Positions 1 through 32,180 of a DNA stretch of 64,000 nucleotides are shown here, one piece after another. A model generated the notes under the pieces. It did not search any database, was not told the DNA's origin, and saw only the letters and a program-made list of their open reading frames with translations. Position 1 is the stretch's first letter. Each line of letters opens with the position of its first letter. Source of the DNA: a virus; the IMG/VR virus record IMGVR_UViG_3300023283_000146, positions 1-64,000 of that record; one strand, given 5' to 3'. Position numbers and translations under genes: made by a program.

Positions 1-401
1 GTTCCAGCCCCACTAGCCGAAAAGGCCAGCAGTCCACTGGACGTTCCTGACAACAGCGGTAACGTTCCAGCCCCACTAGCCGAAAAGGCCAGCAGTCCAG
101 AGGCTGTGCCCTGCAGCAAGGGCAGGACGGCCGTCGCTGTGGCCGTAAACGTCAGCGAACCTGCCGCTGTGCCCAGCAGGAGCGGTAGGTCGCCTGTGGC
201 TGTGCCGCTGAAAACCAGCGAACCCGCCGCTGCGCTCTGCAGCAACGGCAGGGACCCGTCAGCGGTCCCTGAGAAGACTTGTTGACCCGAGGCAGAACCT
301 TGCAGCAACGGCAGGTTGCCTGACCCACTTCCCGAGAAAGTGAGGTCACCAGACCCTGAGCCAGTCAGAAGCGGCAGATTGCCACTACCTGTGCCGCTAT
401 A
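1..401 (-). repeat. coding tandem repeat, 63-nt period, at least 6 units (peptide LPLLxGxxxGxLxFxGxxxGx)
   Basis: LPLL recurs exactly every 21 residues in my translation. Plus-strand bases 1-36 and 64-99 are identical. Confidence 0.85.
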
Positions 402-3537: not shown

Positions 3538-5043
3538 TCAACCGCCAATGATCTCGGGTGACGACCCGAGGGGTGTGCGCTTCTTCACTTGTAGTTCCAT
3601 GTACGCGCGAGAAGCCGCATCAATCTGGTCAGTGTATTCACCGGCAGGAAACAACATAGCTTCCTGAATGAACGTTTCATTCCATGAGCCCCTCACCAGA
3701 AACAGGTTGCCTGCTTCAGCTTGAGCGGCCAACGGACGGGCACGATCTTCCTTGCTGCCCGTCTCAGGAGTGAACCGAACGTTGTACCCATGCACGAGCG
3801 CAGCGAGATGCCCCTTTTGTGATTTGCCCGCCTGCCCAGGGTCTTGCGGAAGCCCAATCTTGACGTCCAGCCCGTCAGCTGTGGCGCAAGCGACGACTGC
3901 CTGCTCTACCGCATGCGGGCTACCTTTGAGACGACGTGAGTGCTCGATATAGATGCGGCCGCGGGAGTCTCTCGACATTTTGACGCCCGCAGTGAACTTT
4001 GCCCGCTTCTTCACAGAACCTGCGAGGTCCCAGCCGCGCACCACCCGCACTGCATCAGCCGGTGCTGAGTCTACAAACTGGAAGAACTCCCTCTTGAACA
4101 TGCCACCACCCCGTGGCACTGGACGCTGTTGCAGCTGTCCTGCCTCCGCATAGGTGCCTCCCCAGGCACGCATCTGTGGCTTGAGTTCGTTCTCTAAGTA
4201 GTTTCGTGAGAAGAACTGGGGCCACAACAGCTCCCCTTCCTCTGTCCTGGGGTCTTCAAAGCCAATAATCGTCTTGCACTTCCGGTCCTGCTCAAACTCC
4301 ATTGGCAGGCAAAGGTGCGTGTAGCCGAGATCATGCTTGAGGATTAGCCCACTGATGTCGTTGGTGTGAACCCTCTGCATGATCACAACGATCGCAGAGC
4401 GATCAGGATCGTTCAGCCGGGTTGGCACAACCTCAGTGAACCACTGCGCCGCATCTTCTCTGCGCGCCTCCGAGTCAGCCGTCTTGATGTTGTGCGGGTC
4501 GTCGATCGTAAACCGATCACCCCGCTCACCAACAGTCATGCCTCCAACAGAGGTTGCAATCCTAACCCCCATGTGATCATTGTCATACCGGACCTTCGCA
4601 TTCTGATCTGCCGTCAGGTGGAAACGATCTCCCCAGGCTGCCTGGTAGCGCTCCGATTCAATGAGAATGCGACAACGTCGGTTGTCTCGAATCGTTAGTT
4701 CCTCGGAGTATGAGCTCGAGACATAACGCAACTGGGGCCGGTTCTTCGGCCCCCACTCCCAAGCCGGCCAGAACACACACGTGGTCATCGACTTCATGCA
4801 ACCTGGCGGCACATTGATCAACAGACGCCGAATCTCTCCGTTCGACACTGCTTCAAGATGCTCACAGATCGCCCCGATCGCCCAGCCATTTACAAAGTCA
4901 CGACCCGGCTCTAGCACTTCCCACATGTACTGGATGAAGCCAACTAGACGCCGCTCCGCCTCCAGCCGGTCCATCGCCTCCAGCGCAGCTTCTGGGTTCT
5001 CTAAGGCTGCAGCCAGAGCACGATCAATCTTCTCGTTCGACAC
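3538..5043 (-). CDS. terL: terminase large subunit
   Basis: 501 aa, GTG start preceded by AGGAAGA. The N-terminal ATPase-like region (LINVPPGCMKSM) and the C-terminal nuclease-like region look like TerL. Preceded by terS and followed by portal. Confidence 0.85.
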   Translation of the reverse strand: MSNEKIDRALAAALENPEAALEAMDRLEAERRLVGFIQYMWEVLEPGRDFVNGWAIGAICEHLEAVSNGEIRRLLINVPPGCMKSMTTCVFWPAWEWGPKNRPQLRYVSSSYSEELTIRDNRRCRILIESERYQAAWGDRFHLTADQNAKVRYDNDHMGVRIATSVGGMTVGERGDRFTIDDPHNIKTADSEARREDAAQWFTEVVPTRLNDPDRSAIVVIMQRVHTNDISGLILKHDLGYTHLCLPMEFEQDRKCKTIIGFEDPRTEEGELLWPQFFSRNYLENELKPQMRAWGGTYAEAGQLQQRPVPRGGGMFKREFFQFVDSAPADAVRVVRGWDLAGSVKKRAKFTAGVKMSRDSRGRIYIEHSRRLKGSPHAVEQAVVACATADGLDVKIGLPQDPGQAGKSQKGHLAALVHGYNVRFTPETGSKEDRARPLAAQAEAGNLFLVRGSWNETFIQEAMLFPAGEYTDQIDAASRAYMELQVKKRTPLGSSPEIIGG

Positions 5044-5677
5044 CAGGGTCTTCCTCTTCGTTCTCTATGTCAATGGTGCGCGCCTGCTCCAACTGCTGCG
5101 CTTCTCGTGAAGCCTTCACCTGTTTCAACAGGTGCCGAAGCTGCGCCTGCTGCTCAGGCGGTAGGTCCTTCAAGACTTCAAGGGTTGGGTAGACCCCAAC
5201 CGCACCTTCGTGCTTCACCGTTTTCTGGACAGAGGTTCGGTCGCGATACTCAGCAATGTGGCGTTTCGCCAACATCGCCAACAGTTGATCACTATATTTA
5301 CGAACCTTGCCCTGTACCTGCCCTCTGTGGAACACAGGTTCGTCCCAACCATCGATTGCTCGACGATGGATCTCTGCCTCGATCGATTCTCGATAGACCT
5401 GCATCGCCTCTTCCTCCGCCATCGCAAAGGAAAGGTCTTTCTGGGCGGTTTTGTAGACAGTCTGCCGAGTCACACCAGCCCGCATAGCTGACTCAGCCTT
5501 CCGCCCCGTCTTAGCGAGAATGTCGAGATAAATCCTCTGCCGAGCTTTGTCGAACCTCGTCCACGACTTCAGGTTCGATCCTCGCTCGCCAGCTGCCTTG
5601 TTGGTTCCGCCGAAGGTCTCCGGGTACCGAACACGACTCTCTTTCGACTTCTTCTTTCTCTTCGCCACAAGCGCCAA
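5024..5677 (-). CDS. terS: terminase small subunit (HTH type)
   Basis: 217 aa overlapping the terL start. Basic N-terminus, then an HTH-like stretch (ILAKTGRKAESAMRAGVTRQTVYK) and a coiled-coil, acidic C-terminus. Confidence 0.7.
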   Translation of the reverse strand: MALVAKRKKKSKESRVRYPETFGGTNKAAGERGSNLKSWTRFDKARQRIYLDILAKTGRKAESAMRAGVTRQTVYKTAQKDLSFAMAEEEAMQVYRESIEAEIHRRAIDGWDEPVFHRGQVQGKVRKYSDQLLAMLAKRHIAEYRDRTSVQKTVKHEGAVGVYPTLEVLKDLPPEQQAQLRHLLKQVKASREAQQLEQARTIDIENEEEDPGVERED

Positions 5678-5928
5678 GAATATCCGTTCCTGGGGCCGGG
5701 CGCATCAGTGAAAGATCAAGAGAACGGAGCCCTGCCTAGCTACATGGCATCACCAGACAGGGCTCCAAGCGGCGCAACCCCCATTCAGAGAAAGGCTGGT
5801 CAGTGAAATCCTGCGCCACCACATAAACTCGAACAAGGGTCGTCGACAGCTCAAGAACCCAGGCAGCAGGGTTCTGGCTCAAGAAGACACGCGAAAAGGA
5901 GCGAAAAAGACAAGGCTGGTGGCCCAGA

Positions 5929-5950
5929 GGGGGCGGCGGTAGCCGCCCCC
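5929..5950. terminator. GC hairpin (9-bp stem GGGGGCGGC, loop GGTA); possible attenuator between element A and terS
   Basis: Perfect inverted repeat seen directly. On the minus strand a T-rich tract (tctttttcgctccttttcg) follows about 15 nt downstream. Confidence 0.3.
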
Positions 5951-5988
5951 TAACTCTGTCTGGGGGCCCTCGAATAGTGTTTCGGGCT

Positions 5989-6270
5989 CCGAACGACCTA
6001 CTCGACCTTGTCTTCTGCCGTGGCCTGAGGTCGTTCGGCGTAAGTCCGGCCCAGCACAGCGGTTACTCTACCTACTCTACCTACTCGACTTGAGAGAGAG
6101 GAGAGAGATCAGAGTTGCAGGTCGCCCCGCTGGGCAAATGCACCGATCTCTCCTGGTTTTGTTGCAAAGGTCGAGTAGGTCGAGTAGGTCGTTCGGGGCC
6201 TGTGCTCTGAAGGAGTTACGGCGAACGACCTTGAAACACACAGGTCGAGTAGGTCGAGTAGGTCGTTCGG
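5989..6270. repeat. composite repeat element A: direct and inverted GGTCGAGTA / CGAACGACC motifs around a GAGAGGAGAGAGATC tract (weaker copies extend to about 6420)
   Basis: ccgaacgacctactcgacc (5989), ctactcgac + gagagaggagagagatc (6080-6110), ggtcgagtaggtcgagtaggtcgttcgg twice (6169-6195, 6243-6270). The same order of sub-motifs recurs at 43147-43421. Confidence 0.85.
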
Positions 6271-6539
6271 GCGTCTAGGTTCAGGCCTGAACGTGATGGA
6301 AGCTGTGTGTAGGTGATGAAGCTGAATCGGGTCAAGGGCCGATGCGTCTTGACTCGACCTACGGTGGCTCGAACGACCTGCGGCCCCCGCCGCTCGACCT
6401 GGGTGAGGCGGGTCGAGTTGGAACAAGAGACAAGTTTGGTTTTTGGTGGAAATGTCTCGAGCGTCGGAGCGGGCCAAAGTGAGCCCCCCTACCGGGGGTC
6501 CCTCTTACCGAACTTTTACGACAAATCTATTTACTGAAG

Positions 6540-6668
6540 TCTTACGTAAGACTTTCGTAAGATTACACAACTCTTACAGTGATTCACTAAAGCCCCAGTC
6601 TTACGTAACTCTTACGGTGATTCACTAAAGTTGCAGTCTTACGTAACTCTTACAGTGATTCACTAAAG
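6540..6668. repeat. one perfect TCTTACGTAAGA palindrome (6540-6551) followed by a 38-bp tandem repeat x3 (core CTCTTACRGTGATTCACTAAAG at 6571, 6609, 6647)
   Basis: Read directly from the sequence. Confidence 0.9.
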
Positions 6669-6695
6669 TCTCGGTCTTACACAAGTCTTACCAAG

Positions 6696-6770
6696 AAAGG
6701 CTAAAGGTGAAAGAAGCTGGGGAAAGGCTAAAGGTGAAAGAAACCCGGGAAAAGCTAAAGGTGAAAGGGC
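6696..6770. repeat. 26-27-bp tandem repeat x3 (core GCTAAAGGTGAAAG at 6700, 6727, 6753)
   Basis: Read directly from the sequence. Purine-rich on the plus strand. Confidence 0.9.
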
Positions 6771-7088
6771 CGGCCAGCCGAGGCCCCGCCCCACCGACCG
6801 AAAGAACGGGCCGGTTCGACAAGGGCCCGCGCCGGCCGGGCCCCGGTAGGGCCGGGGGCGAGCGACGGCCCCGGCCCCTACCGCTAGCCCCCTACCCTTA
6901 CCGGATATACCCTTCCCCAGCCCCCGCCCCGCTAGGCTACGTACCGCTGGCCCTACGCTGCGGCCCGGCGGGCCTTAGCTACCTTGCCGTTTACGCCCCG
7001 CCCTAGGCCCCCGGGCCTTAGTACGGGCCCTACCGTTACGGCTAAATAGCAACGGCCCTAGCCCCCCGCTGTAATACAAGAAACACAA

Positions 7089-7131
7089 TAGCCGCGGGCC
7101 GTTGGTAGTAGCTACCAACGGCCCGCGGCTA
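7089..7131 (-). terminator. 20-bp perfect inverted repeat downstream of the last island gene
   Basis: tagccgcgggccgttggtag / ctaccaacggcccgcggcta separated by 3 nt, 17 nt after the stop at 7148. No clean U-tract. Confidence 0.5.
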
Positions 7132-7147
7132 GCGTAAGGTTACCGCC

Positions 7148-7390
7148 CTAAGCGGCTAGCAGCGGGAGCAGCGCAACGGCCCCGCCGAGGAGCATAAGGG
7201 CCGCGCCCCACGCCAGCGGCCGCATAACGGCCCGCTCTTCGGCCCGTAGGGCCGCGGCGGCCAGGCGGTGGTATTCCCGCCGCTCGGCGCCGCTAAGGGC
7301 GGGCCGGCGGTCCGCCAGGTCGACAAAGCGGGCCCAAGAAACAGGGCAGAAGCCCGCGGGACGGCTGTCTTGGTATTTAGCGGTAGGCAT
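7148..7390 (-). CDS. hypothetical small protein (80 aa) with a hydrophobic C-terminal segment
   Basis: Track ORF 7148..7414 trimmed to the internal ATG at 7390 (MPTAKYQ...). This ATG has the same ATGCCTACCGCT start as the upstream mini-ORF. The C-terminus AWGAALMLLGGAVALLPLLAA looks transmembrane. Confidence 0.5.
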   Translation of the reverse strand: MPTAKYQDSRPAGFCPVSWARFVDLADRRPALSGAERREYHRLAAAALRAEERAVMRPLAWGAALMLLGGAVALLPLLAA

Positions 7391-7397
7391 GGCTAGG

Positions 7398-7484
7398 CTA
7401 GGCGAAAGCGACAAGAGCGCTAAGGGTAAGGCCCAGGGCGGCGGCGCGGACGGCGAGAGCGGTAAGACGAGGAGCGGTAGGCAT
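7398..7484 (-). CDS. possible 28-aa hydrophobic peptide (MPTAPRLTALAVRAAALGLTLSALVAFA)
   Basis: Not in the track (too short); my translation. Begins with the same 12 nt as the next gene and sits just downstream of the duplicated GC-rich leader. Confidence 0.3.
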   Translation of the reverse strand: MPTAPRLTALAVRAAALGLTLSALVAFA

Positions 7485-7575
7485 GGCTAGCGGTAGGGTT
7501 AGGGGCCCGGGGGCGGCCGGGCCGGCCGGCGGGGCCGCGCCCCGCTATATGGAGATAACGGCTAGCGGGGGGCCT
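7485..7575 (-). promoter_or_regulatory. GC-rich upstream/leader element, copy 1 (copy 2 at 9032-9115)
   Basis: Shares aggggcccgggggcggccggg (7501-7521 = 9044-9064), then ccccgc-(N)-atat and acggctagcggg blocks with copy 2. Both abut a minus-strand ATG. Confidence 0.4.
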
Positions 7576-7595
7576 AACCTTTAGGCCCCCCGCTA
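7563..7595 (-). terminator. 15-bp stem hairpin downstream of gene 7636..8043
   Basis: tagcggggggcctaa / ttaggccccccgcta with a 3-nt loop. Confidence 0.45.
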
Positions 7596-7635
7596 ATATA
7601 GCCGCGCTTACCGTAAGCTACGCTAACGGCAATAC

Positions 7636-8043
7636 TTACGCCCCCAGGTCCCCGAACGGGCCCCCCAGGTAGGGCCCGTAGCTAGGGGCGCCCGGCCGGC
7701 GCGGACAAAGGGCGGCCCAACGCCGTACTAGCCGCTGTAGCGCCCGCCGCTGGTGCCCTTTGGCCCGGCCCCGCTGGGCGTTTACCGCCCGCGCCACCGC
7801 GGCCCGTAGGTAGCCGGGGCCGCGCCCGTGGTCCGGTAGCGCTGCTCCTAGGGCCCGTAGGTCGGCTGGCGTAGCGTAGTAGCCCGCTAGGGCGTCCTCC
7901 GCTACGGTAGCGGTAAGCGCGGCGGCCCCGTTGGGCCTAGCGTACGGCCTAAGGGCCGCATGCCCACGCAAGGCGGTAAGTAGGCGGGCGGTCGGGGGCG
8001 TAGCGCGGCGGGCGGCGCGGCGGCGGCGGAGCGGGGAGCGCAT
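7636..8043 (-). CDS. hypothetical Ala/Arg-rich protein (135 aa)
   Basis: ORF track, the only long frame here. Upstream context ccctagctactactagctATG lacks a Shine-Dalgarno. Confidence 0.5.
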   Translation of the reverse strand: MRSPLRRRRAARRATPPTARLLTALRGHAALRPYARPNGAAALTATVAEDALAGYYATPADLRALGAALPDHGRGPGYLRAAVARAVNAQRGRAKGHQRRALQRLVRRWAALCPRRPGAPSYGPYLGGPFGDLGA

Positions 8044-8132
8044 AGCTAGTAGTAGCTAGGGTAGCGGCGGGCGGCGCGGGGGACCGCCCCCCGCGCACAA
8101 CGTTACTTTTCGGCTAGGGCGGCCGGGGCCCT

Positions 8133-8564
8133 TTAGCGGCTTAGCGGTTTACGGTACGGCAAGCGCCACAAACCTTTAGCGCCCGCCAGCCAGTCGCCCC
8201 CGCCGGCCGGCTGGGGCCCGCCGGCCCGTAGCCGGGCTAGCCGGTAGGCCCAGCGGCGCTCGTTCCGCTGGTCCGTTTGGCCTAAAGCCGTTAGGGCTTC
8301 TAGGTACGCTACTAGTACGTTTATAGCCGTAGGGCGGCCCCGCCATTTGTAGCGGCTTTTGTAGCTGTTGTGGTCGGTAAGCCGTAGCGCTAGAAAAGCT
8401 ACTTCTTGAACGGGCCCGGCTACGTATACGGCTAGGGCCCCGTGTACTGCCCGTAGCCGGTTACGGGTAGCGGCGTCGAGCTCGGGTTCGGCTAGGTAGC
8501 GGGCCGTTAGGCTTAGGGCCGCGGCGGCAATGCGCCGGTTACGTACTTTGTGGGGGGCTTCCAT
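8133..8564 (-). CDS. hypothetical protein (143 aa)
   Basis: ORF track. A 9-bp GC hairpin (8074-8096) lies downstream. Confidence 0.5.
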   Translation of the reverse strand: MEAPHKVRNRRIAAAALSLTARYLAEPELDAATRNRLRAVHGALAVYVAGPVQEVAFLALRLTDHNSYKSRYKWRGRPTAINVLVAYLEALTALGQTDQRNERRWAYRLARLRAGGPQPAGGGDWLAGAKGLWRLPYRKPLSR

Positions 8565-8586
8565 AGCGTAGTAGTGGCGGGGGCGC

Positions 8587-8787
8587 CTATTGCTTTTCTT
8601 CTTGGTACTCCACCGTGTCGTCCACGCCTGCTTCGTAGGCTTTTTGTACTAGCTCAAAAAGTTGGAACCGGGTCAGGATAACCGGGCCTTGGCGGAGCGC
8701 GTAGGCTACAACGCCAAAGTATTCGTCAATCACACAGTCCGCCATCAGCTCGCTGGTCTCGATGGGGTGTCCGTCGTATTTGCGCAT
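8587..8787 (-). CDS. hypothetical 66-aa protein, tandem paralog B
   Basis: ORF track. Clearly homologous to 8831..9031 (MRxxDGHP..SELMADCxID.YF....Y....GP.xLTR.QL..LVQ.AY.AGV...VEYQ.EKQ). Conservation at protein level supports coding. Confidence 0.7.
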   Translation of the reverse strand: MRKYDGHPIETSELMADCVIDEYFGVVAYALRQGPVILTRFQLFELVQKAYEAGVDDTVEYQEEKQ

Positions 8788-8823
8788 GGTAGGTAGGTAG
8801 GTAGGTAGGTAGGTAGGTAGGTA
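8788..8823. repeat. (GGTA)9 microsatellite, i.e. (TACC)9 on the coding strand, abutting the ATG of 8587..8787
   Basis: Nine perfect units counted. They fill 36 of the 43 intergenic nt between the two paralogs. Confidence 0.95.
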
Positions 8824-8830
8824 GGGCCGC

Positions 8831-9031
8831 CTATTGCTTTTCTTTTTGGTACTCCACGCCTTCGCGCACCCCCGCTACGTACGCTATTTGTACCAAGCTT
8901 AGCAGCTGGTAGCGGGTTAGCAGCGCTGGGCCCCCGCGCTCTACGTAGTTGTCGGTGTTGAAGTAGTCGTCGATCAGGCAGTCCGCCATCAGCTCAGAGA
9001 CTTGCTCGGGGTGTCCGTCGTGGTGGCGCAT
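8831..9031 (-). CDS. hypothetical 66-aa protein, tandem paralog A
   Basis: ORF track. Paralog of 8587..8787, preceded by cctacgctacctaccATG. Confidence 0.7.
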   Translation of the reverse strand: MRHHDGHPEQVSELMADCLIDDYFNTDNYVERGGPALLTRYQLLSLVQIAYVAGVREGVEYQKEKQ

Positions 9032-9115
9032 GGTAGGTAGCGTAGGGGCCCGGGGGCGGCCGGGCGGCCGGCGGGGGGCGGCGCGCCCCGCGCATATACA
9101 TCTACGGCTAGCGGG
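9032..9115 (-). promoter_or_regulatory. GC-rich upstream/leader element, copy 2
   Basis: See copy 1 (7485-7575). Lies at the left edge of the divergent control region. Confidence 0.4.
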
Positions 9116-9454
9116 CCCCGGTAACCTTAGCCTACCTAGCCCGTTTAGCGGATTTACGGCCCTAAGCGTAGCCGTAAGCTAGGCTTACGGCCCCCGCCCC
9201 CTAGCGAGGGCCCTAGCGGGGGCCTACGGCCCGGCCGCCCCTTAGCGCTCCGGCCCTACGGCCCCGGGGCCGGGCCGTAAGGCCGCTAGCTTAGGGGCCC
9301 CTACGGCCCCGGGGGCCGCCGGCCGTTTAGCTAAGGCCCGGGGGGCCGGCCGGCCGACTAGGCTAGCTGGGCGCGCGCCCCGCCCTACTAGGGGCCGTTG
9401 CCTTTAGCTCATTACCAAAATAATACGTAAGATTTGAGTATGGTCTTACCTACG

Positions 9455-9672
9455 TCTTACGTAAGAACCGTGTAAGACAAGCTTGTTTACATAGATCTTA
9501 CGTAAGACTTGAGTAAGGCCGTCTGCGCACGATTTACGAAGATCTTACGTAAGACTTGAGTAAGATCGTGATTCTTACGAAGATCTTACGTAAGACCTTC
9601 GTAAGATCGTGATTCTTACGAAGATCTTACGTAAGACTTGAGTAAGACTTACGTAAGACTTGTTCTTACGAA
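9455..9672. repeat. array of five perfect 12-bp palindromes TCTTACGTAAGA plus one 10-bp version, embedded in about 41-49-bp tandem units
   Basis: Perfect copies at 9455, 9496, 9543, 9584 and 9625; CTTACGTAAG at 9648. Unit starts GATCTTACGTAAGAC. Confidence 0.95.
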
Positions 9673-9706
9673 GATCTTACTAAAGTTCGGCAACCGATCG
9701 ACCGAA

Positions 9707-9787
9707 ACACAAGTCACCCTCCGACCAAAACACAAGTCACCCCTTGACCGAAACACAAGTCACCCTCCGACCAAAACACAAGTCACC
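9707..9787 (+). repeat. 4 x 23-bp direct repeats, each carrying ACACAAGTCACC
   Basis: Motif starts at 9707, 9730, 9753 and 9776. Three or four more degenerate copies follow up to the ATG at 9889. Confidence 0.95.
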
Positions 9788-9888
9788 CCGTAAGGAAACC
9801 GTAAGAACGCAAGTCATCATTTGCCACCACGCGTCGACAAGGTATCCTTGCCCAGTCACCAGTAACACCAAGTCATCACCAAGTCACC

Positions 9889-10101
9889 ATGGAACACAAC
9901 ATCCGCAAGAACACAGAGCACGATGCCTGGGAAGTCATCGATGAGCTCGGCTACGTGGTCATCCCCACCACTCCGCACACGATGCGGACGGCTCGGCAAG
10001 CAGCCTACCTGGCGGCCCTGCTGGAGCTCGCTGAGCAGAATGACCAAATCGCTCGGCAAGTCACGGCTCTGCAAGAAGACATCCTCGCAGACCACAGCTG
10101 A
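9889..10101 (+). CDS. hypothetical early protein (70 aa)
   Basis: ORF track. ATG directly preceded by ACCAAGTCACC. Confidence 0.7.
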   Translation: MEHNIRKNTEHDAWEVIDELGYVVIPTTPHTMRTARQAAYLAALLELAEQNDQIARQVTALQEDILADHS

Positions 10102-10110
10102 GGCACTGCT

Positions 10111-10257
10111 GTGAAGGCTACCGATCAAGAGCTCGACCGCATGGCCGCTGGGCAAATGGTGCTGTGCGGTTGCTGCCGCGCTGCTGAAGCCTACGCACTG
10201 ACTTTGTGCGAAGAGCTCCTGTGCGAAGAGTGCTGGGATGCACACCTGAGTCAATAG
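10111..10257 (+). CDS. possible Cys-rich mini-protein (48 aa, GTG start)
   Basis: Not in the track. My translation is VKATDQELDRMAAGQMVLCGCCRAAEAYALTLCEELLCEECWDAHLSQ. Fills the gap between neighbouring genes. Confidence 0.35.
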   Translation: MKATDQELDRMAAGQMVLCGCCRAAEAYALTLCEELLCEECWDAHLSQ

Positions 10258-10283
10258 CAAGTCACCCCCAACAACAAGTCATC

Positions 10284-10700
10284 ATGCAAGAATACGACAT
10301 CACCCTCCTGGACGACGGCACCCTCGACACTGTGTTCGTGTGCAATCTCTGCGAGCAGGAGCTCCGCTACAGCCACATCCAACGGGACGCGGAAGGCGAC
10401 ATCGAACCGGACGAGCTCGACCGAGTGCTGGACGAGCACGCGGAAGAGTGCGAAGCCTTCGCTGCTGTGGAGTGGCGGGCCCGGAATGCTTTCGCCCGCC
10501 AAAGCCTGACCACGTTCCCCCAGGCCGGCCTGGGCGGATGCCGCGAATGTGGTCAGGAGGCCCCGAGCATACGGCTGGACCCTGACTCTGGCCGCCCCCA
10601 GGAGCTCGGCCATTTCTGCAGCTTCGCCTGCGCAGCCACCTTCCTGGGCATGGAGGATGAAGAGATCGAAGCGTGGGAATGGTGGGGCCCCGAAGCCTAG
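10284..10700 (+). CDS. hypothetical early protein (138 aa), CxxC-rich
   Basis: Track ORF 10206..10700 trimmed to the ATG butted against CAAGTCATC. CNLC, CRECG and CSFAC motifs are present. Confidence 0.7.
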   Translation: MQEYDITLLDDGTLDTVFVCNLCEQELRYSHIQRDAEGDIEPDELDRVLDEHAEECEAFAAVEWRARNAFARQSLTTFPQAGLGGCRECGQEAPSIRLDPDSGRPQELGHFCSFACAATFLGMEDEEIEAWEWWGPEA

Positions 10701-10770
10701 CCGCAGGTTTCTCGAAGAAACCTAAGGCCCAGCCGCCAACAGGACGATATACAGAAGGCAAGGGCACCAA

Positions 10771-10812
10771 CAAGTCACTCCGCAACACAAGTCACTCCGC
10801 AACACAAGTCAC
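10771..10812 (+). repeat. 3 x 17-bp direct repeats carrying CAAGTCAC, the last abutting the ATG at 10814
   Basis: CAAGTCAC at 10771, 10788 and 10805. Confidence 0.9.
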
Positions 10813-10813
10813 C

Positions 10814-11437
10814 ATGAACACCATCATCGACACCAAATACACCCAGCCCACTGTTCGTGTGCATCTCGCATACGACAGTCTCTACAATCCCGCGCTGGAT
10901 CTCGACGGCAACACTGACCCTGAAACGTGCGCAGCGCTGAAGCGGGAGATCGAGCAGATCGAGCGGGGGGAGCTGACCCCCGTGTGTGTTTGGCAAGAAC
11001 GGCACTGCCGCTGCTGTGGCACCTGGAGCCGAGAGGGGGATGTCATGGGCGTCATCGTCGGCAGTATCGAGGAAGCCTGGGGCTACGTCAAGAGCGAAGA
11101 CTTGTTGGCCACGCCGCAAGCCACGCGTGCTGATGCTCTGCGCGAGCTACACGAGGACATCTCTGCCTTGCGCAATCACATGGAAACAGCTGGCCTGGAC
11201 ACCAAAGGCCAACAGCTGGCCGCCCGTCGAATGGCCTCCTTGCAGCAAGAGCTGAACAGGGTGAACCGGCAAAGGCTACTGGAGGAGCTGAGAACGTTCG
11301 CAGAGACCATCGTGGACTACGGCGTGCCCACCGTGGGCGCTCGTCAGATCGTGCAGCAGCGACTGATCAGCAACACGGCTAAGGTGCTGCGGGAACTGGA
11401 TCAGCTGGATGCCGAGTACGATCCCAGTAAAGCCTAA
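10814..11437 (+). CDS. hypothetical early protein (207 aa)
   Basis: Track ORF 10673..11437 trimmed to the ATG preceded by CAAGTCACC. Confidence 0.7.
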   Translation: MNTIIDTKYTQPTVRVHLAYDSLYNPALDLDGNTDPETCAALKREIEQIERGELTPVCVWQERHCRCCGTWSREGDVMGVIVGSIEEAWGYVKSEDLLATPQATRADALRELHEDISALRNHMETAGLDTKGQQLAARRMASLQQELNRVNRQRLLEELRTFAETIVDYGVPTVGARQIVQQRLISNTAKVLRELDQLDAEYDPSKA

Positions 11438-11488
11438 AGCCTGGGGCCTGGGCAGCCGATAAGGTTCCTACACATGCGACAAGTCACC

Positions 11489-12337
11489 ATGAGCAACCGC
11501 TTCTCTGCCTCCAACATCGACCCCTCCGAGTGGGCGGAGGTTCTCGTGTTCCACTACAACGTGGAGGTCGATGGCTGGCCTGTGCCAGCCTACAATCTCG
11601 AAGCCCTCATCGCATTGCGCCAGGCGAACCCGGGCCGTTTCTTCCAGCATGAGAACGGGGGCTGCGCAATCTGTGGTGCGCGGTTCAAGTACGGGTCGGT
11701 CTTCCGCAACGAACAGACGGGCGACCACATTGTGGTCGGGTGGATCTGCGCGGAGAAGCTGGAGCTCACAAGCGACTTGGCCGCCCACCGCATGGTCAAG
11801 GAACGGGCCTTTGCCGCACAGCGGCGCACGCTGCGGCGCAGGGAGCTCTTCCGCTGGGCGCAAGCCAATCGTGATTTGCTTCCGCTGTTGCGTGTGGACC
11901 ATGGCATTACCCGTGACATCCGGCGGCAGGTGATTGCACGCCCCGAGCGCGGCCTCACGGGCCCACAGATCGATCTACTCCAGCGCCTCAAGCAGCAGGT
12001 CGCGGAGAAGGAGAAGCGTGACCAGGAGCCCAAGGTGCCGGCGCCGGAAGGGCGGCACACCATCGAAGGTGAGCTCGTCTCAGCCAAGCATGTTGACTCG
12101 GACTACGGCGTGCAGACCAAGATGGTGGTGAAGATCCAACAGCCGGAAGGGTCCTGGGTAGCCTACGGCACGATGCCGAGCATTCTCGAGGACACCTTGT
12201 GGGAGAGAGGGATCATGTTTGACCAGTTGCGAGAAAAGCAACTGCATGTACGGTTCACAGCTACCTTCAAGCGTAGCAATCGCGAAGAGCATTTCGCCTT
12301 CGCGAAGCGTCCTACTAAGGCTGAGCTACTCAGCTAA
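11489..12337 (+). CDS. hypothetical early protein (282 aa)
   Basis: Track ORF 11474..12337 trimmed to the ATG preceded by GACAAGTCACC. Confidence 0.75.
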   Translation: MSNRFSASNIDPSEWAEVLVFHYNVEVDGWPVPAYNLEALIALRQANPGRFFQHENGGCAICGARFKYGSVFRNEQTGDHIVVGWICAEKLELTSDLAAHRMVKERAFAAQRRTLRRRELFRWAQANRDLLPLLRVDHGITRDIRRQVIARPERGLTGPQIDLLQRLKQQVAEKEKRDQEPKVPAPEGRHTIEGELVSAKHVDSDYGVQTKMVVKIQQPEGSWVAYGTMPSILEDTLWERGIMFDQLREKQLHVRFTATFKRSNREEHFAFAKRPTKAELLS

Positions 12338-12368
12338 CACCACAAGTCACCAACCGACAAGTCACCTC

Positions 12369-12632
12369 ATGCGACTGCTTGAACAAATGAACGCTCTGCG
12401 CGACGGCCGTGTGCACGGCGGCTATTCCTGGGCTGCTGTCATGGCCGATGGTGAACTGCTCTGTGAAAGCTGCTTCACCGCACATTTCCGCTACATCTTC
12501 TGCACTACATGCGAAGATGATGACAGCAATACCCAGTGGAGGTTCATCGGGTTGACCAACAGTGGCGAAGCTGAACACACTGTGCACTGTGCACAGTGCA
12601 ACCGAGAAATCTGGAACCTGGAGAACGACTGA
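12369..12632 (+). CDS. hypothetical Cys-rich protein (87 aa)
   Basis: Track ORF 12219..12632 trimmed. Two motif copies lie upstream (CAAGTCACCAACCGACAAGTCACCTC-ATG). Confidence 0.65.
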   Translation: MRLLEQMNALRDGRVHGGYSWAAVMADGELLCESCFTAHFRYIFCTTCEDDDSNTQWRFIGLTNSGEAEHTVHCAQCNREIWNLEND

Positions 12633-12826
12633 TGAAGATCGAACGTCTTGGACACTACGCCCCCGGCAGCTTCGGGCTGCCGACACGCCACAATGAGCAG
12701 CGCACTGTCGTGCCTGTCTGGACGTGTGGGCGTCGTCGGAATGGACCAGACAACAAGCCATGTGTGCACTCCAGCCGCGAGGAGGCACGGGAGTGCCGGC
12801 GCCGAAGCACAAAGGTGCCCACGTAA
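12632..12826 (+). CDS. hypothetical protein (64 aa)
   Basis: Internal ATG of track ORF 12596..12826, overlapping the previous stop (TGATG). Confidence 0.5.
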   Translation: MKIERLGHYAPGSFGLPTRHNEQRTVVPVWTCGRRRNGPDNKPCVHSSREEARECRRRSTKVPT

Positions 12827-12838
12827 GCTTCGATCACA

Positions 12839-13087
12839 ATGAGTTCGATCACAATGAGGAACCCGAACCGCCAGCTGGCGGAAGTCGAAGTCGAACGGGT
12901 CGAGCCCCACTGGGCCTACGTGCGCATAGCACGTAGGCTGGACCCCGCCTTCCGTGGCCCGCCATCAGCGCTACGGCGTGGGATCGATATCAGCCACAAG
13001 GCCCAGGTGGGCGACTATGGTGTGCTTTGGTACATCGTTGGGCCGACCTATGGGCTGCAACAAGTCATCCTCATTCACAGGGACTAG
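12839..13087 (+). CDS. hypothetical protein (82 aa)
   Basis: ORF track; fits the gap in the operon. Confidence 0.5.
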   Translation: MSSITMRNPNRQLAEVEVERVEPHWAYVRIARRLDPAFRGPPSALRRGIDISHKAQVGDYGVLWYIVGPTYGLQQVILIHRD

Positions 13088-13104
13088 CGCAATACCAAGT
13101 CACC

Positions 13105-13524
13105 ATGGCACAGCACCAATGGCACCCTGGGCAAGAAGTCTTGCTATGGGCTGTCGATCGCCCAGGCGGGCTGATGAGGCCCAGCAAGGCCGTTATTGAT
13201 CGAGTGCTCAAGACAGGCCACGCGGTCCTGCGCATGCGCTCGGGACCACGATTCCGCCCAGACGGCACCCAAACCGGAGACCCGCTTCGGCACAGCAGGA
13301 TACAGCCCTGGGACGAGGAAGCGAGCCGCCTGGTACAGCAGTACCAGACGGCCGACCAAGCACGACGGGCTGCGCATGCGCTAGAGGGGCTGTTGAGTAA
13401 CGTACGCCCAAGGTGTCTCAAGTCTTGCGACTGGCAGCAGATCCATGAAGAGCTCTGCTCTACAGACAAGACAGTACGAAAGCTGATCGATTTACGGAAT
13501 AGGGAGAATGGTAGCGCTGGATAG
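13105..13524 (+). CDS. hypothetical protein (139 aa)
   Basis: Track ORF 13027..13524 trimmed to the ATG preceded by ACCAAGTCACC. Confidence 0.65.
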   Translation: MAQHQWHPGQEVLLWAVDRPGGLMRPSKAVIDRVLKTGHAVLRMRSGPRFRPDGTQTGDPLRHSRIQPWDEEASRLVQQYQTADQARRAAHALEGLLSNVRPRCLKSCDWQQIHEELCSTDKTVRKLIDLRNRENGSAG

Positions 13525-13620
13525 GTGCAAACCCTATACTTGTAGTGCGATGGTGACTTGTCGCTTTCTCTGCTGTGGTGTGGTGACGGCCGCAGCAGGG
13601 AAGAACCCTCCTGAAGGGTA

Positions 13621-13660
13621 GGGGCCTGTGCAGCGTTGGTGTCTGCACGGGCCCCTTTCT
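13621..13660 (+). terminator. rho-independent-type terminator splitting the early operon
   Basis: 13-bp stem ggggcctgtgcag / ctgcacgggcccc (one G-U pair), 9-nt loop, then TTTCT. Confidence 0.65.
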
Positions 13661-13709
13661 ATGTTGCCGCCTGGCGTTGCGTAGGCTAGCCTTACCTGCA
13701 CAGGCGCAG

Positions 13710-13913
13710 ATGAGTAAGGCACAGAGAGATCAACAGCACGTCGTTGTGCTCCGCGACGGGACAGTCATAGGGCCCTTCACTGCCCGTGAGGCCATCCAGT
13801 TCGTTCGCACAGGCATACGCTTGCCGAGATCCTCTGAGCTCCGTCATGCTTTCGTGCGCCCGCGCCTGCCCAAGGATGAGCCGAAAGATCCAAGACAAGT
13901 CACCCTTGAATGA
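13710..13913 (+). CDS. hypothetical protein (67 aa)
   Basis: Internal ATG of track ORF 13677..13913. First gene after the terminator. Confidence 0.5.
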   Translation: MSKAQRDQQHVVVLRDGTVIGPFTAREAIQFVRTGIRLPRSSELRHAFVRPRLPKDEPKDPRQVTLE

Positions 13914-14269
13914 ATCCGCAAACACAAGTCACCCCTGGTGAGCTTCGAATGCCTGGTGCGCTCCAAGAGCTTCGGCCATTTCTCTTGGATGCAGCTAAAG
14001 GCTATGAGACACGCCGAGAGCACCGTTTGGCTGAACCTTGCCATGTGCTAGCAACAGCCATTCAACTGCATGCCCGGCTCGATCTCACAGAGTTCGGTTG
14101 GGAGCATTTCCATGCACTGCGCCAGGCAGCTTCTGCAGCTTATTTCCACAGTGAAATAAGTGAAGAGCGTTGTATGTTCCTGATGTTGTGCGTACTGTGT
14201 GATGGTGCCTTGGACAACAGCTGTTGTCGCAAATGGCACCTGTCAGATCTGCCTACGGTGGTGTCGTGA
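13910..14269 (+). CDS. hypothetical protein (119 aa)
   Basis: ORF track. ATGA overlap with the previous gene; CAAGTCACC lies 5 nt upstream of the ATG. Confidence 0.55.
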   Translation: MNPQTQVTPGELRMPGALQELRPFLLDAAKGYETRREHRLAEPCHVLATAIQLHARLDLTEFGWEHFHALRQAASAAYFHSEISEERCMFLMLCVLCDGALDNSCCRKWHLSDLPTVVS

Positions 14270-14394
14270 TGTCAATCACTACGGTTGAGCTTTCAGACGG
14301 CCGTGTTGCTGATATCTACAGTCTGACCTTTGGGCGGGCCAGGCTTGGTGTCCGAGCAGCAGACAGCCTCAGCTATGATGACGCTTGGTGATAT
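14269..14394 (+). CDS. possible 41-aa protein
   Basis: Not in the track. The ATG overlaps the previous stop (TGATG); my translation is MSITTVELSDGRVADIYSLTFGRARLGVRAADSLSYDDAW. Confidence 0.25.
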
Positions 14395-14528
14395 AGCTCT
14401 TGGGATGCTGCGGTCGCAGCAGTGCAGCAATGGGACCCCCGAGAGCAAACAGAGCCAATGGGCTGGATACGTCACCCCAGCAGTGGCCGTAGTCAAGAGC
14501 TAGGTGGTGAAAAGCAAGTGATCCGTCA

Positions 14529-15092
14529 ATGGACCAGTCGATGAAAAGCGATAGACAAGTCATCTCCGAGCTACGAGCTCAGGTGGACTACTACAAGACG
14601 CGAGAGGAAGCGTTCTCAGCTGCTTTACAGGTACCTGACGAGGCAGAGGTTGATTGGGCGGCGCGGCTGCGAGGATTGCTGAGTGAACGTGATGGCCTAC
14701 GGATGCAGGTGCGAATGTTCGAGAACCTGGTTCAAGAACAAGCTCTTACTGGCGAACCCAGAGATGGCCACTACACCAATGATTTGCTGACTATGCAATG
14801 GCGCTGGCGTGCAGTTGCATATCTGCTTACGGCACGACAGTTGTGTCGGGCACTAGGTGAGGAGCCTGATGAAGAGACGTTGGGCTATGCCTACAATCGC
14901 GACAATGTTGAGTTGCATGCTGTGTTGGGGATGGCAAAAGCAACACAAGTCACTCTTGAAGACATCAAGCGTTGGACAGACCAACAGTGCCAAGAGGCAT
15001 ATGAGTGGGGGCTCATATTCTTTTTGAGCCGTTGGCGACAAAATCAGCCTTACGTTCCGCCACGCCCACAGCACGTTCCTGGGGTTCAATAA
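14529..15092 (+). CDS. hypothetical protein (187 aa)
   Basis: ORF track. Contains two internal CAAGTCA copies (about 14557 and 14946). Confidence 0.65.
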   Translation: MDQSMKSDRQVISELRAQVDYYKTREEAFSAALQVPDEAEVDWAARLRGLLSERDGLRMQVRMFENLVQEQALTGEPRDGHYTNDLLTMQWRWRAVAYLLTARQLCRALGEEPDEETLGYAYNRDNVELHAVLGMAKATQVTLEDIKRWTDQQCQEAYEWGLIFFLSRWRQNQPYVPPRPQHVPGVQ

Positions 15093-15131
15093 GGCCACAT
15101 AAACACAAGTCATCGCCCAACACAAGTCATC

Positions 15132-15410
15132 ATGAAGCCTTTGCGAAAACGTTCTAGCTATTCTTTAGTCAAGTTGCGTGAAGACTTGTGGGAGCTCCGA
15201 CAAAAAGTCGGAACTCTTCTAGAGCCACAACTCACACAACGGCTTCAAGAAGTAGAACACGAACTCAACCGCAGAGACGCGGCACTGCCTGCTTGCCTGT
15301 GTTGTCAACAACGAATCTGCATTCCGCTAGATGAAGACTGCATAGAGGTTGAAGCTATGCAGGGGTGGGTTTGCAGCAGAGAATGTCAAGAAGCCCTAGG
15401 CACAAAATAA
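15132..15410 (+). CDS. hypothetical protein (92 aa)
   Basis: ORF track. Two motif copies upstream, the second butted against the ATG (CAAGTCATC-ATG). Confidence 0.65.
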   Translation: MKPLRKRSSYSLVKLREDLWELRQKVGTLLEPQLTQRLQEVEHELNRRDAALPACLCCQQRICIPLDEDCIEVEAMQGWVCSRECQEALGTK

Positions 15411-15655
15411 TGGCGCAACCGCTAGGATCAGGAAAAGAACGTGAGTCACTATTCGCTCAACGTTTGCAAGAGCAACGTTTGGCCAAAGGCTGGTCTTATG
15501 AAGCCTTGTCTCGCAAGACCACACTGAGCAAAGAACACATAGGTCGTATCGAGCGTGACGAAAACTTACCGTCGCTGGATCTCTTTGAAGAGATTTGCAT
15601 CGCCCTAGATGTGCGCCCTGACTACTTGTTGGGTTGGAGCAACAAACCGAGATAA
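15410..15655 (+). CDS. XRE-family helix-turn-helix protein (81 aa)
   Basis: Internal ATG of track ORF 15365..15655, overlapping the previous stop (TAATG). FAQRLQEQRLAKGWSYEALSRKTTLSKEHIGRIERDENLPSLD is a typical Cro/C1-type HTH. Confidence 0.75.
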   Translation: MAQPLGSGKERESLFAQRLQEQRLAKGWSYEALSRKTTLSKEHIGRIERDENLPSLDLFEEICIALDVRPDYLLGWSNKPR

Positions 15656-15801
15656 TGTCACCCCCGAAAGTCGAAGTGAAGTGTATTTCTTGTGGCCATC
15701 GTTGGCTCGTTGGGCCACGTGAAATCGATGAAGATGACATGCCCATTTGCCCTAAGTGCAGTGACATTGGTGTTGCTGTAAGGGCACGAAACCACCGCTA
15801 A
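15655..15801 (+). CDS. possible zinc-ribbon mini-protein (48 aa)
   Basis: Not in the track. TAATG overlap. My translation is MSPPKVEVKCISCGHRWLVGPREIDEDDMPICPKCSDIGVAVRARNHR (CxxC...CxxC). Confidence 0.45.
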   Translation: MSPPKVEVKCISCGHRWLVGPREIDEDDMPICPKCSDIGVAVRARNHR

Positions 15802-15815
15802 ATCTCCAAGTCATC

Positions 15816-16010
15816 ATGGGCCGACGCCGAACCAAGAAGCCTGTCGAACAAGCAGAGCAACCGAAGAAACCTTCCCGTCCGAAGCTGAGAAAGCGCCCTC
15901 TTGAGCCAGGGGCGAGACACCTCAGCAGAGAAAAAGTGCTCCACATCTATGGGCACAAGGCCCAGCAAGTGAGCCCGGCCGGCAAGAACAAAGGCAAGAA
16001 GGGATCTTGA
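15816..16010 (+). CDS. hypothetical highly basic protein (64 aa)
   Basis: ORF track. ATG preceded by CCAAGTCATC, the last start-abutting copy of the motif. Confidence 0.5.
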   Translation: MGRRRTKKPVEQAEQPKKPSRPKLRKRPLEPGARHLSREKVLHIYGHKAQQVSPAGKNKGKKGS

Positions 16011-16024
16011 GCATCTGGTAGGGC

Positions 16025-16330
16025 ATGGGAAGCATCAAAACAGGCCAGTGTGCCAATCGAACGTGGGACCCCTTTCAGGTCGCCGAGGCGGATGACCCTC
16101 TCGTGCTGGCCCTGCGTCGCCTGCGGAACAGGGAGAACATCCTCGCCGAGGTCCTGTCCGTGCTCCTCCTGCCGGCGAACCGCCCGGCGATCCACGGGGA
16201 GATCATCGAGATGGCCTGGACGTGGGTCGAGCGCGCGGGGCTGGGAGACGTGCTCCCGCGCGTGAGCATCGAGGCCGAGGCGGCCCGGGTGATGGACCAG
16301 GAGGCCAAGCGTCGAGGGGGTGAAGTGTGA
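16025..16330 (+). CDS. hypothetical protein (101 aa), paralog of 17602..17880 with a DUF5131-like N-terminal stub
   Basis: ORF track. The C-terminal two-thirds align with 17602..17880 (ILAEVLSVLL.P.NR......IEMAWTWV.RAGL.D). The N-terminus carries ANRTWDPFQ. Confidence 0.55.
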   Translation: MGSIKTGQCANRTWDPFQVAEADDPLVLALRRLRNRENILAEVLSVLLLPANRPAIHGEIIEMAWTWVERAGLGDVLPRVSIEAEAARVMDQEAKRRGGEV

Positions 16331-16596
16331 CCCGCGAGAGCGAGCACGTCATCCGAAGCGTCGCGCTGCAGTCGGGGGCGCTGCTGGCCGTGATCTGCAT
16401 CGTCTGGACGCTGTTCGGGCCGGCGACTCCTGCAGGAGACCAGGAAGGACCCCAGGAAACGCGAGCGACTGTGCTCCCGCAGCCGAACACGTCGGAGACG
16501 GAGGAGCTCGAGGCCCTCGGGATGTGCACCTGGTGCGGTGAGAGGCGCCTCGATTGCTACTGGCACACGAAGGAGTGGCCGGAGGAGATCCGGTGA
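16327..16596 (+). CDS. hypothetical membrane protein (89 aa)
   Basis: ORF track. GTG start overlapping the previous stop; hydrophobic segment ALQSGALLAVICIVWTLF. Confidence 0.45.
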   Translation: MTRESEHVIRSVALQSGALLAVICIVWTLFGPATPAGDQEGPQETRATVLPQPNTSETEELEALGMCTWCGERRLDCYWHTKEWPEEIR

Positions 16597-17576: not shown

Positions 17577-17601
17577 CCACCAACACCTTCGAGGTAGTGC
17601 T

Positions 17602-17880
17602 ATGAGCAATGTGGATGAAAATGAGGCGCGCTGCGTCGGCTTCGTCCCTCCCCGTGTCGATCACTCGGAGGCCGATCTAGACGCTCTGCGAGCAACCCGG
17701 AGGCTGCTCAAGAAGAGGGAAGAGATCCTGGTTGCAATCCTGGCAACGTTACTCCAGCCGGACAATCGCTCCAAGCTGCCGCCGAAGTTGGTTGAGATGG
17801 CTTGGAACTGGGTTCAGTGGGCGGGGCTGGAGGATGCCTTCCAGCGGGAGACCATCGAGCCCAAGGAGAAGGGGTCGTGA
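17602..17880 (+). CDS. hypothetical protein (92 aa), paralog of 16025..16330
   Basis: Internal ATG of track ORF 17398..17880. Homology to 16025..16330 seen by eye. Confidence 0.55.
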   Translation: MSNVDENEARCVGFVPPRVDHSEADLDALRATRRLLKKREEILVAILATLLQPDNRSKLPPKLVEMAWNWVQWAGLEDAFQRETIEPKEKGS

Positions 17881-32177: not shown

Positions 32178-32180
32178 TGT

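Follow-up and report, generated by a model that had tools for sequence, protein, structure and literature searches.

A thymine-context rule in a 2.6-kb island of a phage genome and its possible relation to thymidine hypermodification

The island described here lies at positions 6775-9410 of a 64,000-nt stretch of phage DNA (positions 1 to 64,000 of IMG/VR record IMGVR_UViG_3300023283_000146, hereafter the window), which represents most of a siphovirus-like genome of ~64.8 kb on a Joint Genome Institute (JGI) metagenome contig. It is situated in a 4-kb gap between divergent late and early gene blocks and carries six small minus-strand open reading frames (ORFs), here named g1 to g6. The late genes terS (5677-5024) and terL (5043-3538) are read leftward from the minus strand, as is the portal gene, and the island lies upstream of terS on that same strand; rightward genes of unassigned function begin at ~9889 and are taken as the early block, and elsewhere the minus strand carries replication, nucleotide-metabolism and tail genes. 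The G+C content of the island is 0.684 compared with 0.548 in the rest of the window, and the step at its edges, from 0.55 to 0.68-0.76, is abrupt. A preliminary description of this DNA had drawn attention to the jump in composition and to an abundance of the word CTAG, and its figures were reproduced exactly: G+C is 49/60 in 7501-7560 and 22/60 in 9421-9480, while CTAG occurs nine times in 9105-9392 and four times in 6990-7160, the total for the island being 34 with nine GCTAGC. The island is a real and extreme compositional anomaly, with nothing comparable among the related sequences that could be reached.

A dinucleotide rule that extends to synonymous sites

At its shortest, the rule followed by the island is that T rarely precedes G or C on either strand. 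We refer to the dinucleotides concerned as TS (TG, TC, CA and GA, that is T before G or C counted over both strands). Their rho values in the island are 0.41 for TG, 0.56 for CA, 0.44 for TC and 0.33 for GA, while that of TpA reaches 3.12 as against 0.52 in the rest of the window; we know of no genome with a TpA rho near 3. The counts themselves (CA 73, TG 63, TC 63, GA 46) show a similar depletion on the two strands, a symmetry that suggests a property of duplex DNA and not of a transcript. Taken over both strands, 29% of the T residues in the island precede G or C compared with 64% in the rest. Outside the island TS sites have a density of 288±22 per kb (minimum 207), which falls to 93 per kb over the island as a whole and to 26 per kb within 9032-9410. 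Correspondingly shaped A/T runs of the type T..A (TA, TTA, TAA, TTTA) account for 43-78% in the island and 5-6% elsewhere, and the rho values of CC, CG and GG are 1.05-1.15 in the island and 0.84-0.89 in the rest. The edges of the island are sharp and coincide with repeat arrays. Among ~20,000 windows of 300 nt taken from 170 related loci, none is comparable to it.

The rule also operates inside the reading frames. When the protein sequence was held fixed, codons were redrawn from the phage's own usage and TS dinucleotides were counted, the six island ORFs gave z scores of -10.5 (g3), -9.9 (g4), -6.1 (g6), -3.8 (g1), -2.9 (g5) and -2.3 (g2), compared with a mean of +2.5±1.6 and a minimum of -1.7 for 55 other genes of the window. 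The codon choice of g3 illustrates the effect, since leucine is encoded by CTA in 13 of 19 cases and valine by GTA in seven of eight, the same codons each making up 13% in ten reference genes. The non-coding parts are nevertheless more extreme than the coding parts, and the fraction of T in TS context rises from 0.10-0.22 in non-coding DNA through 0.24-0.31 in g3 and g4 to 0.49 in the paralogs g1 and g2.

What gives the island its peculiar vocabulary follows from this single rule. Avoidance of TS leaves TpA, TAG and CTA abundant (TAG occurs 111 times on the plus and 70 times on the minus strand) and hence generates CTAG and GCTAGC, whereas TGA, TCA, GATC and TGCA are nearly absent; Shine-Dalgarno (SD) words are missing because the SD core requires GA, and codons are skewed toward CTA, GTA, TAC and AGC. 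In relation to base composition CTAG is 4.4-fold and GCTAGC 10-fold enriched, and the density of CTAG is 5.3-fold that in the rest of the window. Relative to lower-order composition the enrichment disappears, with 34 CTAG observed against 38.1 expected from trinucleotides and ~31 from dinucleotides, and nine GCTAGC against 9.9. Many copies are simply codon pairs within ORFs (GCT-AGC, CTA-GCx), and a k-mer census of the island gave no dominant long motif and no regular spacing, only codon-level repeats such as GGCCCGTAG, whose minus-strand reading is CTA-CGG-GCC. The enrichment in CTAG and GCTAGC is a by-product of the TS rule and not the primary signal, and it serves as a caution that an apparent CTAG enrichment can arise from a dinucleotide rule.

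The cassette, its borders and its counterpart in a related phage

The six minus-strand ORFs were confirmed as first described. The paralogs g1 (8831-9031) and g2 (8587-8787) each encode 66 aa and are 62% identical; g1 is near-ordinary in composition and still depleted of TS at synonymous sites. They are followed by g3 (8133-8564; 143 aa, Ala/Arg-rich and predicted to be helical) and g4 (7636-8043; 135 aa, Arg/Ala-rich with the N-terminus MRSPLRRRRAARR), both ORFans, and then by g5 (7398-7484), a 28-aa hydrophobic peptide, and g6 (7148-7390), an 80-aa protein with a hydrophobic C-terminal segment; the last two both begin MPTA, and their starts have an 18-nt repeat in common. The absence of an SD before these starts was likewise borne out, an SD-like 4-mer being found upstream of none of the six island ORFs compared with 29 of 55 other genes. 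Nor did wider searches place in a family any of the proteins that the preliminary description had left unassigned. None of the six gave a match in Pfam, PHROGs or NCBIfam, and PDB sequence searches with the island ORFs gave none either; among 5.8 billion proteins g3 and g2 matched only themselves, a profile of g1 and g2 run against 1.84 billion cluster representatives recovered itself and one weak repeat-protein match, and tblastn of the island ORFs against 90 related IMG/VR loci revealed no homologue. As protein-coding genes g3 and g4 are candidates with no more than moderate support: they have ATG starts in similar CTA-rich contexts, stand in tandem on the same strand and show the order GC1>GC3>GC2 seen in other genes of the window.

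A promoter-leader element of ~100 nt is present twice on the minus strand in copies that are 81% identical, and follows the plan GCCG-N10-TATA-GGGGCGCGG; a leader made up of G and C alone comes next, and a CTA-rich tract poor in purines leads to the ATG. Copy 1 (9032-9120) lies upstream of g1 and reads GCCG-N10-TATAT-GCGGGGCGCG, a ~45-nt G/C-only leader and CCTACC-ATG, while copy 2 (7485-7580) lies upstream of g5. This duplication divides the cassette into two units, g1-g2-g3-g4 and g5-g6, the latter extending up to a terminator. The few TS sites that survive outside the ORFs are concentrated in the N10/TATA box, at 9093-9101 in copy 1 and at 7550-7554 in copy 2, where three of the four TS sites of 7485-7635 fall within the TATA box; such retention is as expected of a constrained core amid DNA purged of TS. 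Depletion is most extreme in the distal non-coding stretch on the minus strand (9032-9410), with 10 TS sites in 379 nt against ~72 expected from its G+C and with 78% of A/T runs of the T..A type. A proximal TS-poor non-coding stretch (6775-7088) lies beyond the terminator, and the left non-coding part as a whole (6775-7147) has a TS fraction of 0.22.

The three hairpins noticed earlier are all present. That at 7089-7131 on the minus strand resembles an intrinsic terminator, with a 20-bp stem and the T-rich tail TTGTGTTTCT, and ends the g5-g6 unit; the one after g4 (7563-7595) bears CTAAAGG, read on the minus strand, in its loop and overlaps the start of promoter-leader copy 2, while a G/C hairpin with a 9-bp stem (8074-8096) lies between g3 and g4. 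RNA folding against shuffled controls gave z -0.3 for 9032-9410, nothing beyond composition, and z -2.5 for 6775-7147, a stretch that contains the 20-bp terminator stem; Rfam returned only matches far below gathering scores. Between g1 and g2 is a perfect (GGTA)9.5 microsatellite (8788-8825), free of TS sites, which reads (CCTA)n directly upstream of the g2 ATG and could be a slippage-prone element acting on g2 expression. On the plus strand both leaders (7500-7540 and 9043-9085) contain at least four G-runs of at least three (GGGG-CCC-GGGGG-CGGCC-GGG-...-GGGG), which could form a G-quadruplex on the strand that serves as template for the island genes.

On either side the island is bordered by arrays of the motif TCTTAC. 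The left array (6503-6691) consists of half-sites of the TCTTACGTAAGA palindrome family with 11-bp phasing, and the right array (9412-9680), with 41-nt units and the same phasing, is inverted relative to it, the arms being 91% complementary. Pairs of TCTTAC spaced 11 bp apart occur 21 times in the window against 0.17 expected, 16 of them flanking the island; further sites extend to 9806, with small clusters at 23931-23947, 25133-25149 and 38768-38806. These arrays are probably operators of a phage regulator which would regulate or insulate the cassette. At the left edge of the island three 27-bp direct repeats, GAAAGGCTAAAGGTGAAAGAA, follow on the plus strand (6695-6775). The word CTAAAGG, found 13 times in place of the 4.4 expected, has seven copies at the island edges and gene junctions, on the plus strand within 6701-6761 and on the minus strand at 7578-7584, 8130-8136, 8173-8179 and 9401-9407; the right-edge copy is thus inverted relative to those of the left edge, and two internal junctions are also marked. 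Other repeats were seen nearby. Four 23-bp direct repeats, GACCRAAACACAAGTCACCC, lie to the right of the island (9699-9788), and a 17-bp repeat akin to them, ACAAGTCACTCCGCAAC, is present in 2.5 copies 1 kb further right (10770-10812); being iteron-like and beside the low-G+C right array (0.39 in 9401-9700), they could mark a replication origin. The 9-mers AGGTCGAGT and ACTCGACCT recur in both orientations a short way upstream of terS (5985-6420) and in intergenic DNA at 43226-43416, and could be binding sites of the terminase or of a regulator.

Phage, IMG/VR and metagenome collections yielded no close relative of this phage, the best TerL identity being 65%, and the DNA of 6400-9800 matched none of 50,697 phage records. 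The most informative comparison is with L012 (IMGVR_UViG_3300032272_000011), whose TerL is 63% identical to that of the window. Upstream of its terS (4900-8460) L012 has ~10 small genes, each behind a near-identical promoter element of ~60 nt (GCCGATCGCCGATAAAGAGAGTAGGCCGGGGGWGACCCGGC), in a module that has inverted arrays of another motif, CATGAGT/CACGTGAG, on its two sides. Most copies of this promoter element (4900-8150) are preceded by CTAAAGG-like words (CTAAAGG, GTAAAGG, TCTAAAG), and in the copy at 5645 the gap from this word to a GATAAAGAGAG box is 17 nt, which suggests that CTAAAGG may belong to the promoter. The last promoter-leader of L012 and its ATG-CCT-ACC start align with the element of the window (8130-8230 of L012 with copy 2). 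Apart from this promoter-leader there is no significant DNA similarity between the L012 module and the island, and g5 and g6 show no protein similarity to the 'MPT' ORF of L012.

When 11,093 windows from related IMG/VR loci are ranked by TS density (mean 261±29 per kb), the bottom four all belong to L012, with 103-137 sites per kb, and these lie at the distal end of its module, syntenic with 9032-9410; the lowest of 8,893 further windows from metagenome relatives has 147 per kb. Seven of the ten module genes have synonymous TS z scores of -2.2 or lower, while the structural genes of L012 are near +1. A milder TS desert at the syntenic position in unrelated sequence would favour maintenance by selection over accident. 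A mild shortage of TS in M6 and Ab18 is limited to intergenic DNA upstream of terS. The word CTAG is missing altogether from 21.5 kb of L012.

Predicted thymidine hypermodification and possible explanations of the island

By homology, the window is predicted to encode a thymidine-hypermodification pathway of the PaMx11 type, for which a kinase, a transferase and a lyase were matched, all on the minus strand. The kinase (32181-33050) is a homologue of 5-hydroxymethyldeoxyuridine (5-hmdU) DNA kinases (Pfam HMUDK_hel, E 2e-49, profile positions 5-276 of 281) and shares 46-47% identity with those of PaMx11, Ab18 and PhiJL001 and 33% with that of M6. The amino acid:DNA transferase (35292-36152) matches ADDT (E 9e-28), the PaMx11 glycinyltransferase gp46 (PDB 8Z2M, E 2e-84) and PDB 25QC (E 1.6e-95), and the flavin-dependent lyase (34247-35155) matches PaMx11 gp47 (PDB 8Z79/8Z2O, E 3e-58). 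An enzyme of thymidylate-synthase fold (31128-32177; Pfam E 3e-20), for which the closest relative of solved structure is a CMP 5-hydroxymethylase (E 3e-19), is likely to be a dUMP hydroxymethylase supplying 5-hmdUTP. The cluster as a whole (30604-36152 and 40123-41540), adjoined by a family-A DNA polymerase (28318-30234), also holds an HD-domain protein and proteins like Pam3 gp33 and gp34. In PaMx11 the enzymes convert 5-phosphomethyl-dU to N-alpha-glycinyl-T and this to 5-aminomethyl-dU (PMC11472151, PMC8989533), and the cluster predicts a base of this N-alpha-GlyT/5-NmdU type.

The sequence context of such modification has been described for other phages. Flodman et al. found that the resistant restriction sites of M6, ViI and phiW-14 have TG or TC in common and cite unpublished kinase data on TG (PMC6449724). 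In Acinetobacter phage 15599 (Nucleic Acids Research, 2026) modification is reported to fall chiefly on TG, to a lesser degree on TC and seldom on TT or TA; its DNA was digested completely at AATT and TTAA and was only weakly protected at CTAG and GTAC (PMC13458397). Escherichia coli RNA polymerase transcribed templates containing 5-hydroxymethyluracil at 350% of the normal level, and at 10% of that after phosphorylation by 5-HMUDK (PMC6457204). The dinucleotide classes depleted from the island are exactly these reported TG/TC target contexts.

The rest of the window bears on the same question. TTAA and AATT are entirely absent from the 64 kb, where base composition predicts ~160 of each and trinucleotides predict 46 and 91, and ACCGGT (18.7 expected) and AGTACT (12.2 expected) are also absent; other palindromes in which every T has A or T as its 3' neighbour show a deficit (observed/expected 0.17-0.64). 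No such deficit is seen in palindromes that contain TS (1.14-1.40), and among those over-represented are TGATCA (39 against 12) and GAGCTC (53 against 19). This genome-wide pattern is consistent with what would be expected if only TS thymines were protected in this phage, and the lack of any TTAA or AATT is genomic evidence in favour of the published view that a T with A or T after it stays unprotected. TTAA is also missing in the TerL relatives L012, L018, L020, L035, L036 and L213. As a separate observation, the TS excess over synonymous resampling seen in the 55 genes outside the island has weaker parallels in M6 (mean z +1.0) and Ab18 (+1.3); it might reflect selection for modifiable sites in ordinary genes, in a comparison confined to phages that carry the pathway.

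The explanation that we favour, and to which we give an even chance of being right, is that the island, lying upstream of terS, forms a hypomodified expression cassette with two transcription units, a duplicated promoter-leader and flanking operator arrays. It draws on sequence statistics and on the context preferences published for other phages. If the pathway decorates T mainly in TG and TC context, as in the characterised phages, then the island, with 3- to 11-fold fewer modifiable thymines per kb, would stay nearly unmodified. Selection may keep TS low so that the cassette remains readable by host RNA polymerase and DNA-binding proteins, a step of which we are less sure, and its readability would then be independent of the modification state of the genome; the flanking TCTTACGTAAGA operators would probably regulate or insulate it. 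On this account the restricted word set noted earlier would stem from avoidance of the reported target dinucleotides of the hypermodification pathway, and the high G+C of the island would follow from the TS rule as well. The suggestion in the preliminary description of a functionally specialised module is supported by the terminator and the duplicated promoter-leader that the island possesses, by its ORFan genes and by a rule that acts even at synonymous sites.

A wider proposition is put forward with clearly less conviction: that this is an 'unmodifiable' promoter-bearing domain in a hypermodified chromosome, a CpG-island-like exception in the lineage of the window and L012, and that hypermodification might also serve as a sequence-programmed, genome-wide regulator of transcription. 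Full-text literature searches gave no description of such a region, and the connection proposed here, between the island and the thymidine hypermodification of this phage, appears not to have been made before. Thymidine hypermodification is generally viewed as a uniform nuclease shield. If the proposed link holds, phages would pattern DNA chemistry along the genome by means of the primary sequence, and modification would be costly, or would affect regulation, in ways that certain genes need to escape. The TS density, counted over the two strands, offers a simple statistic with which similar regions may be sought in hundreds of kinase-encoding phage contigs.

Several points weigh against the favoured explanation. 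The modification of this phage's DNA is predicted from its genes, and the TS preference is extrapolated from kinases that are 33-47% identical, the published basis being mostly restriction-digest patterns. The early genes (9889-20114) have an ordinary TS density, so that a need of low TS for early transcription is no general rule here. The island is rich in palindromes, either G/C-only or of TA type, that modification would leave unprotected, which is a cost. A kinase on the L012 contig was not among the matches listed in the IMG/VR scans. M6, Ab18 and PhiJL001 carry the pathway and yet have no TS desert (lowest window 170-240 per kb), and the genes of M6 and Ab18, those of PhiJL001 not being included, have no strongly negative TS z (minimum -1.5). 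As to the products of the cassette, ORF length supports g3 and g4 as genes weakly, Markov models giving a probability of 0.12-0.19 for a longest chance ORF of at least 143 codons and of ~0.02 for a second of at least 139, and AlphaFold confidence is low (pLDDT 51 for g3 and 49 for g1/g2).

The main rival, which we consider unlikely, is mutational decay. Hypermodified T, or its 5-hmdU or phosphorylated intermediates, would mispair with G and produce T-to-C changes at TS in weakly constrained DNA, so that TS becomes CS, G+C rises and T is left only before A or T; the island would be decaying accessory DNA. The direction of the bias fits, given the raised G+C and the elevated rho of CC, CG and GG, as does the TS gradient, which follows constraint from non-coding DNA through g3 and g4 to the paralogs g1 and g2, and the island ORFs had no homologues in the searches made. 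However, the synonymous sites of the 55 other genes are undecayed and carry TS in excess, no decay is seen in the genes of M6 and Ab18, and the edges of the island are sharp and lie at repeat arrays. The TS-poor stretch of dissimilar sequence at the same position in L012 also suggests a property that is maintained.

We hold it improbable that the island is foreign DNA, a moron from a donor with an odd oligonucleotide signature whose match to the target context of the pathway would be coincidental. The abrupt rise in G+C, the ORFan proteins, the lack of any DNA match in the phage records and the island's own terminator are in keeping with such an origin, and deviant composition is found here together with the absence of any ORF homologue in the 90 related IMG/VR loci, the combination by which genomic islands are recognised. 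Against this, none of the ~20,000 related-phage windows comes near the signature, the same TCTTAC arrays stand on both sides as inverted operator arrays and not as direct repeats, and an integrase, a transposase and a target-site duplication were not found. The suggestion in the preliminary description that the module may have been horizontally acquired finds no support in that form, since the promoter-leader, the ATGCCTACC (ATG-CCT-ACC) start and CTAAAGG are common to the syntenic, native module of L012. We know of no donor genome with the dinucleotide signature of the island.

Design at the level of RNA is a good deal less probable again. It would have TG avoided against spurious starts (ATG, GTG, TTG), GA avoided against SD cores and TAG multiplied, so that long leaders or antisense RNA would not be translated spuriously. 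The lack of SD-like 4-mers before all six ORFs and the many TAG triplets on both strands accord with this, as do the many retained TS sites in start codons and in the promoter box. Such a design would not explain the high G+C; the rule acts at synonymous sites within ORFs, and both strands are equally depleted (in the mRNA sense TG 73, CA 63, GA 63 and TC 46).

The earlier proposal that CTAG or GCTAGC forms an array recruiting a DNA-binding protein, a methyltransferase or a restriction-like factor is in keeping with 34 and nine copies in 2.6 kb, well above base composition, but has to be judged most improbable now that di- and trinucleotide composition predicts both words (31-38 and 9.9), their spacing is irregular and many are codon pairs. 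Least probable of all are a coding sequence with TAG reassigned, an extended structured RNA or a chimeric assembly, for which frequent TAG, the hairpins and the metagenome-contig origin might be cited: TAG is evenly distributed over the six frames, with 20-39 in each, and reading it as sense yields no long ORF that would convince, no suppressor tRNA or any other tRNA gene was found in the window, the folding and Rfam results given above speak against a structured non-coding RNA, and the island has motifs in common with both flanks and contains paralogs of ordinary composition.

Comparison with known systems

The phages PaMx11 and M6 of Pseudomonas, ViI of Salmonella, phiW-14 of Delftia and 15599 of Acinetobacter have, as predicted for the window, a post-replicative pathway in which 5-HMUDK is combined with an amino-acid or polyamine:DNA transferase. 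Their reported TG/TC targets are the words depleted from the island, and TTAA and AATT, reported to be unprotected, are those absent from the window. A local region that avoids the targets has not been described in these phages, whereas the window has one, and its packaging module belongs to a different TerL lineage. The avoidance of restriction palindromes follows the same logic of selection on short words, which may be recognised in the window-wide absence of TTAA, AATT, ACCGGT and AGTACT. The island differs in that it appears to avoid the phage's own modification targets and not the cleavage sites of a host, and in that its avoidance concerns dinucleotides on both strands and is confined to 2.6 kb, which are themselves rich in palindromes.

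In position, strand, small ORFan genes, promoter-like elements of their own and terminator, the island resembles the morons or early cassettes found upstream of terS, such as ORF001-010 of M6 and the L012 module, in which coding bodies likewise turn over between conserved regulatory boxes. It differs from them in its extreme dinucleotide rule, in a G+C content 13-20 points above that of the genome and in the absence of SD sequences. The two inverted, 11-bp-phased arrays, 2.9 kb apart around the cassette, recall the looping between OL and OR of phage lambda and the 11-bp iterons of parC/ParR; looping between the TCTTAC arrays is a conjecture from this likeness, and the arrays differ from those systems in that the motif recurs at 23931, 25133 and 38768-38806. 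In concept, the island as proposed here resembles the CpG islands of vertebrates and the base J (glucosyl-hydroxymethyluracil) domains of kinetoplastids, where a local, promoter-associated exception is made to a context-dependent modification. The likeness is one of analogy and not of kinship, for a CpG island retains the target dinucleotide and escapes the enzyme, whereas the phage island is without the target itself.

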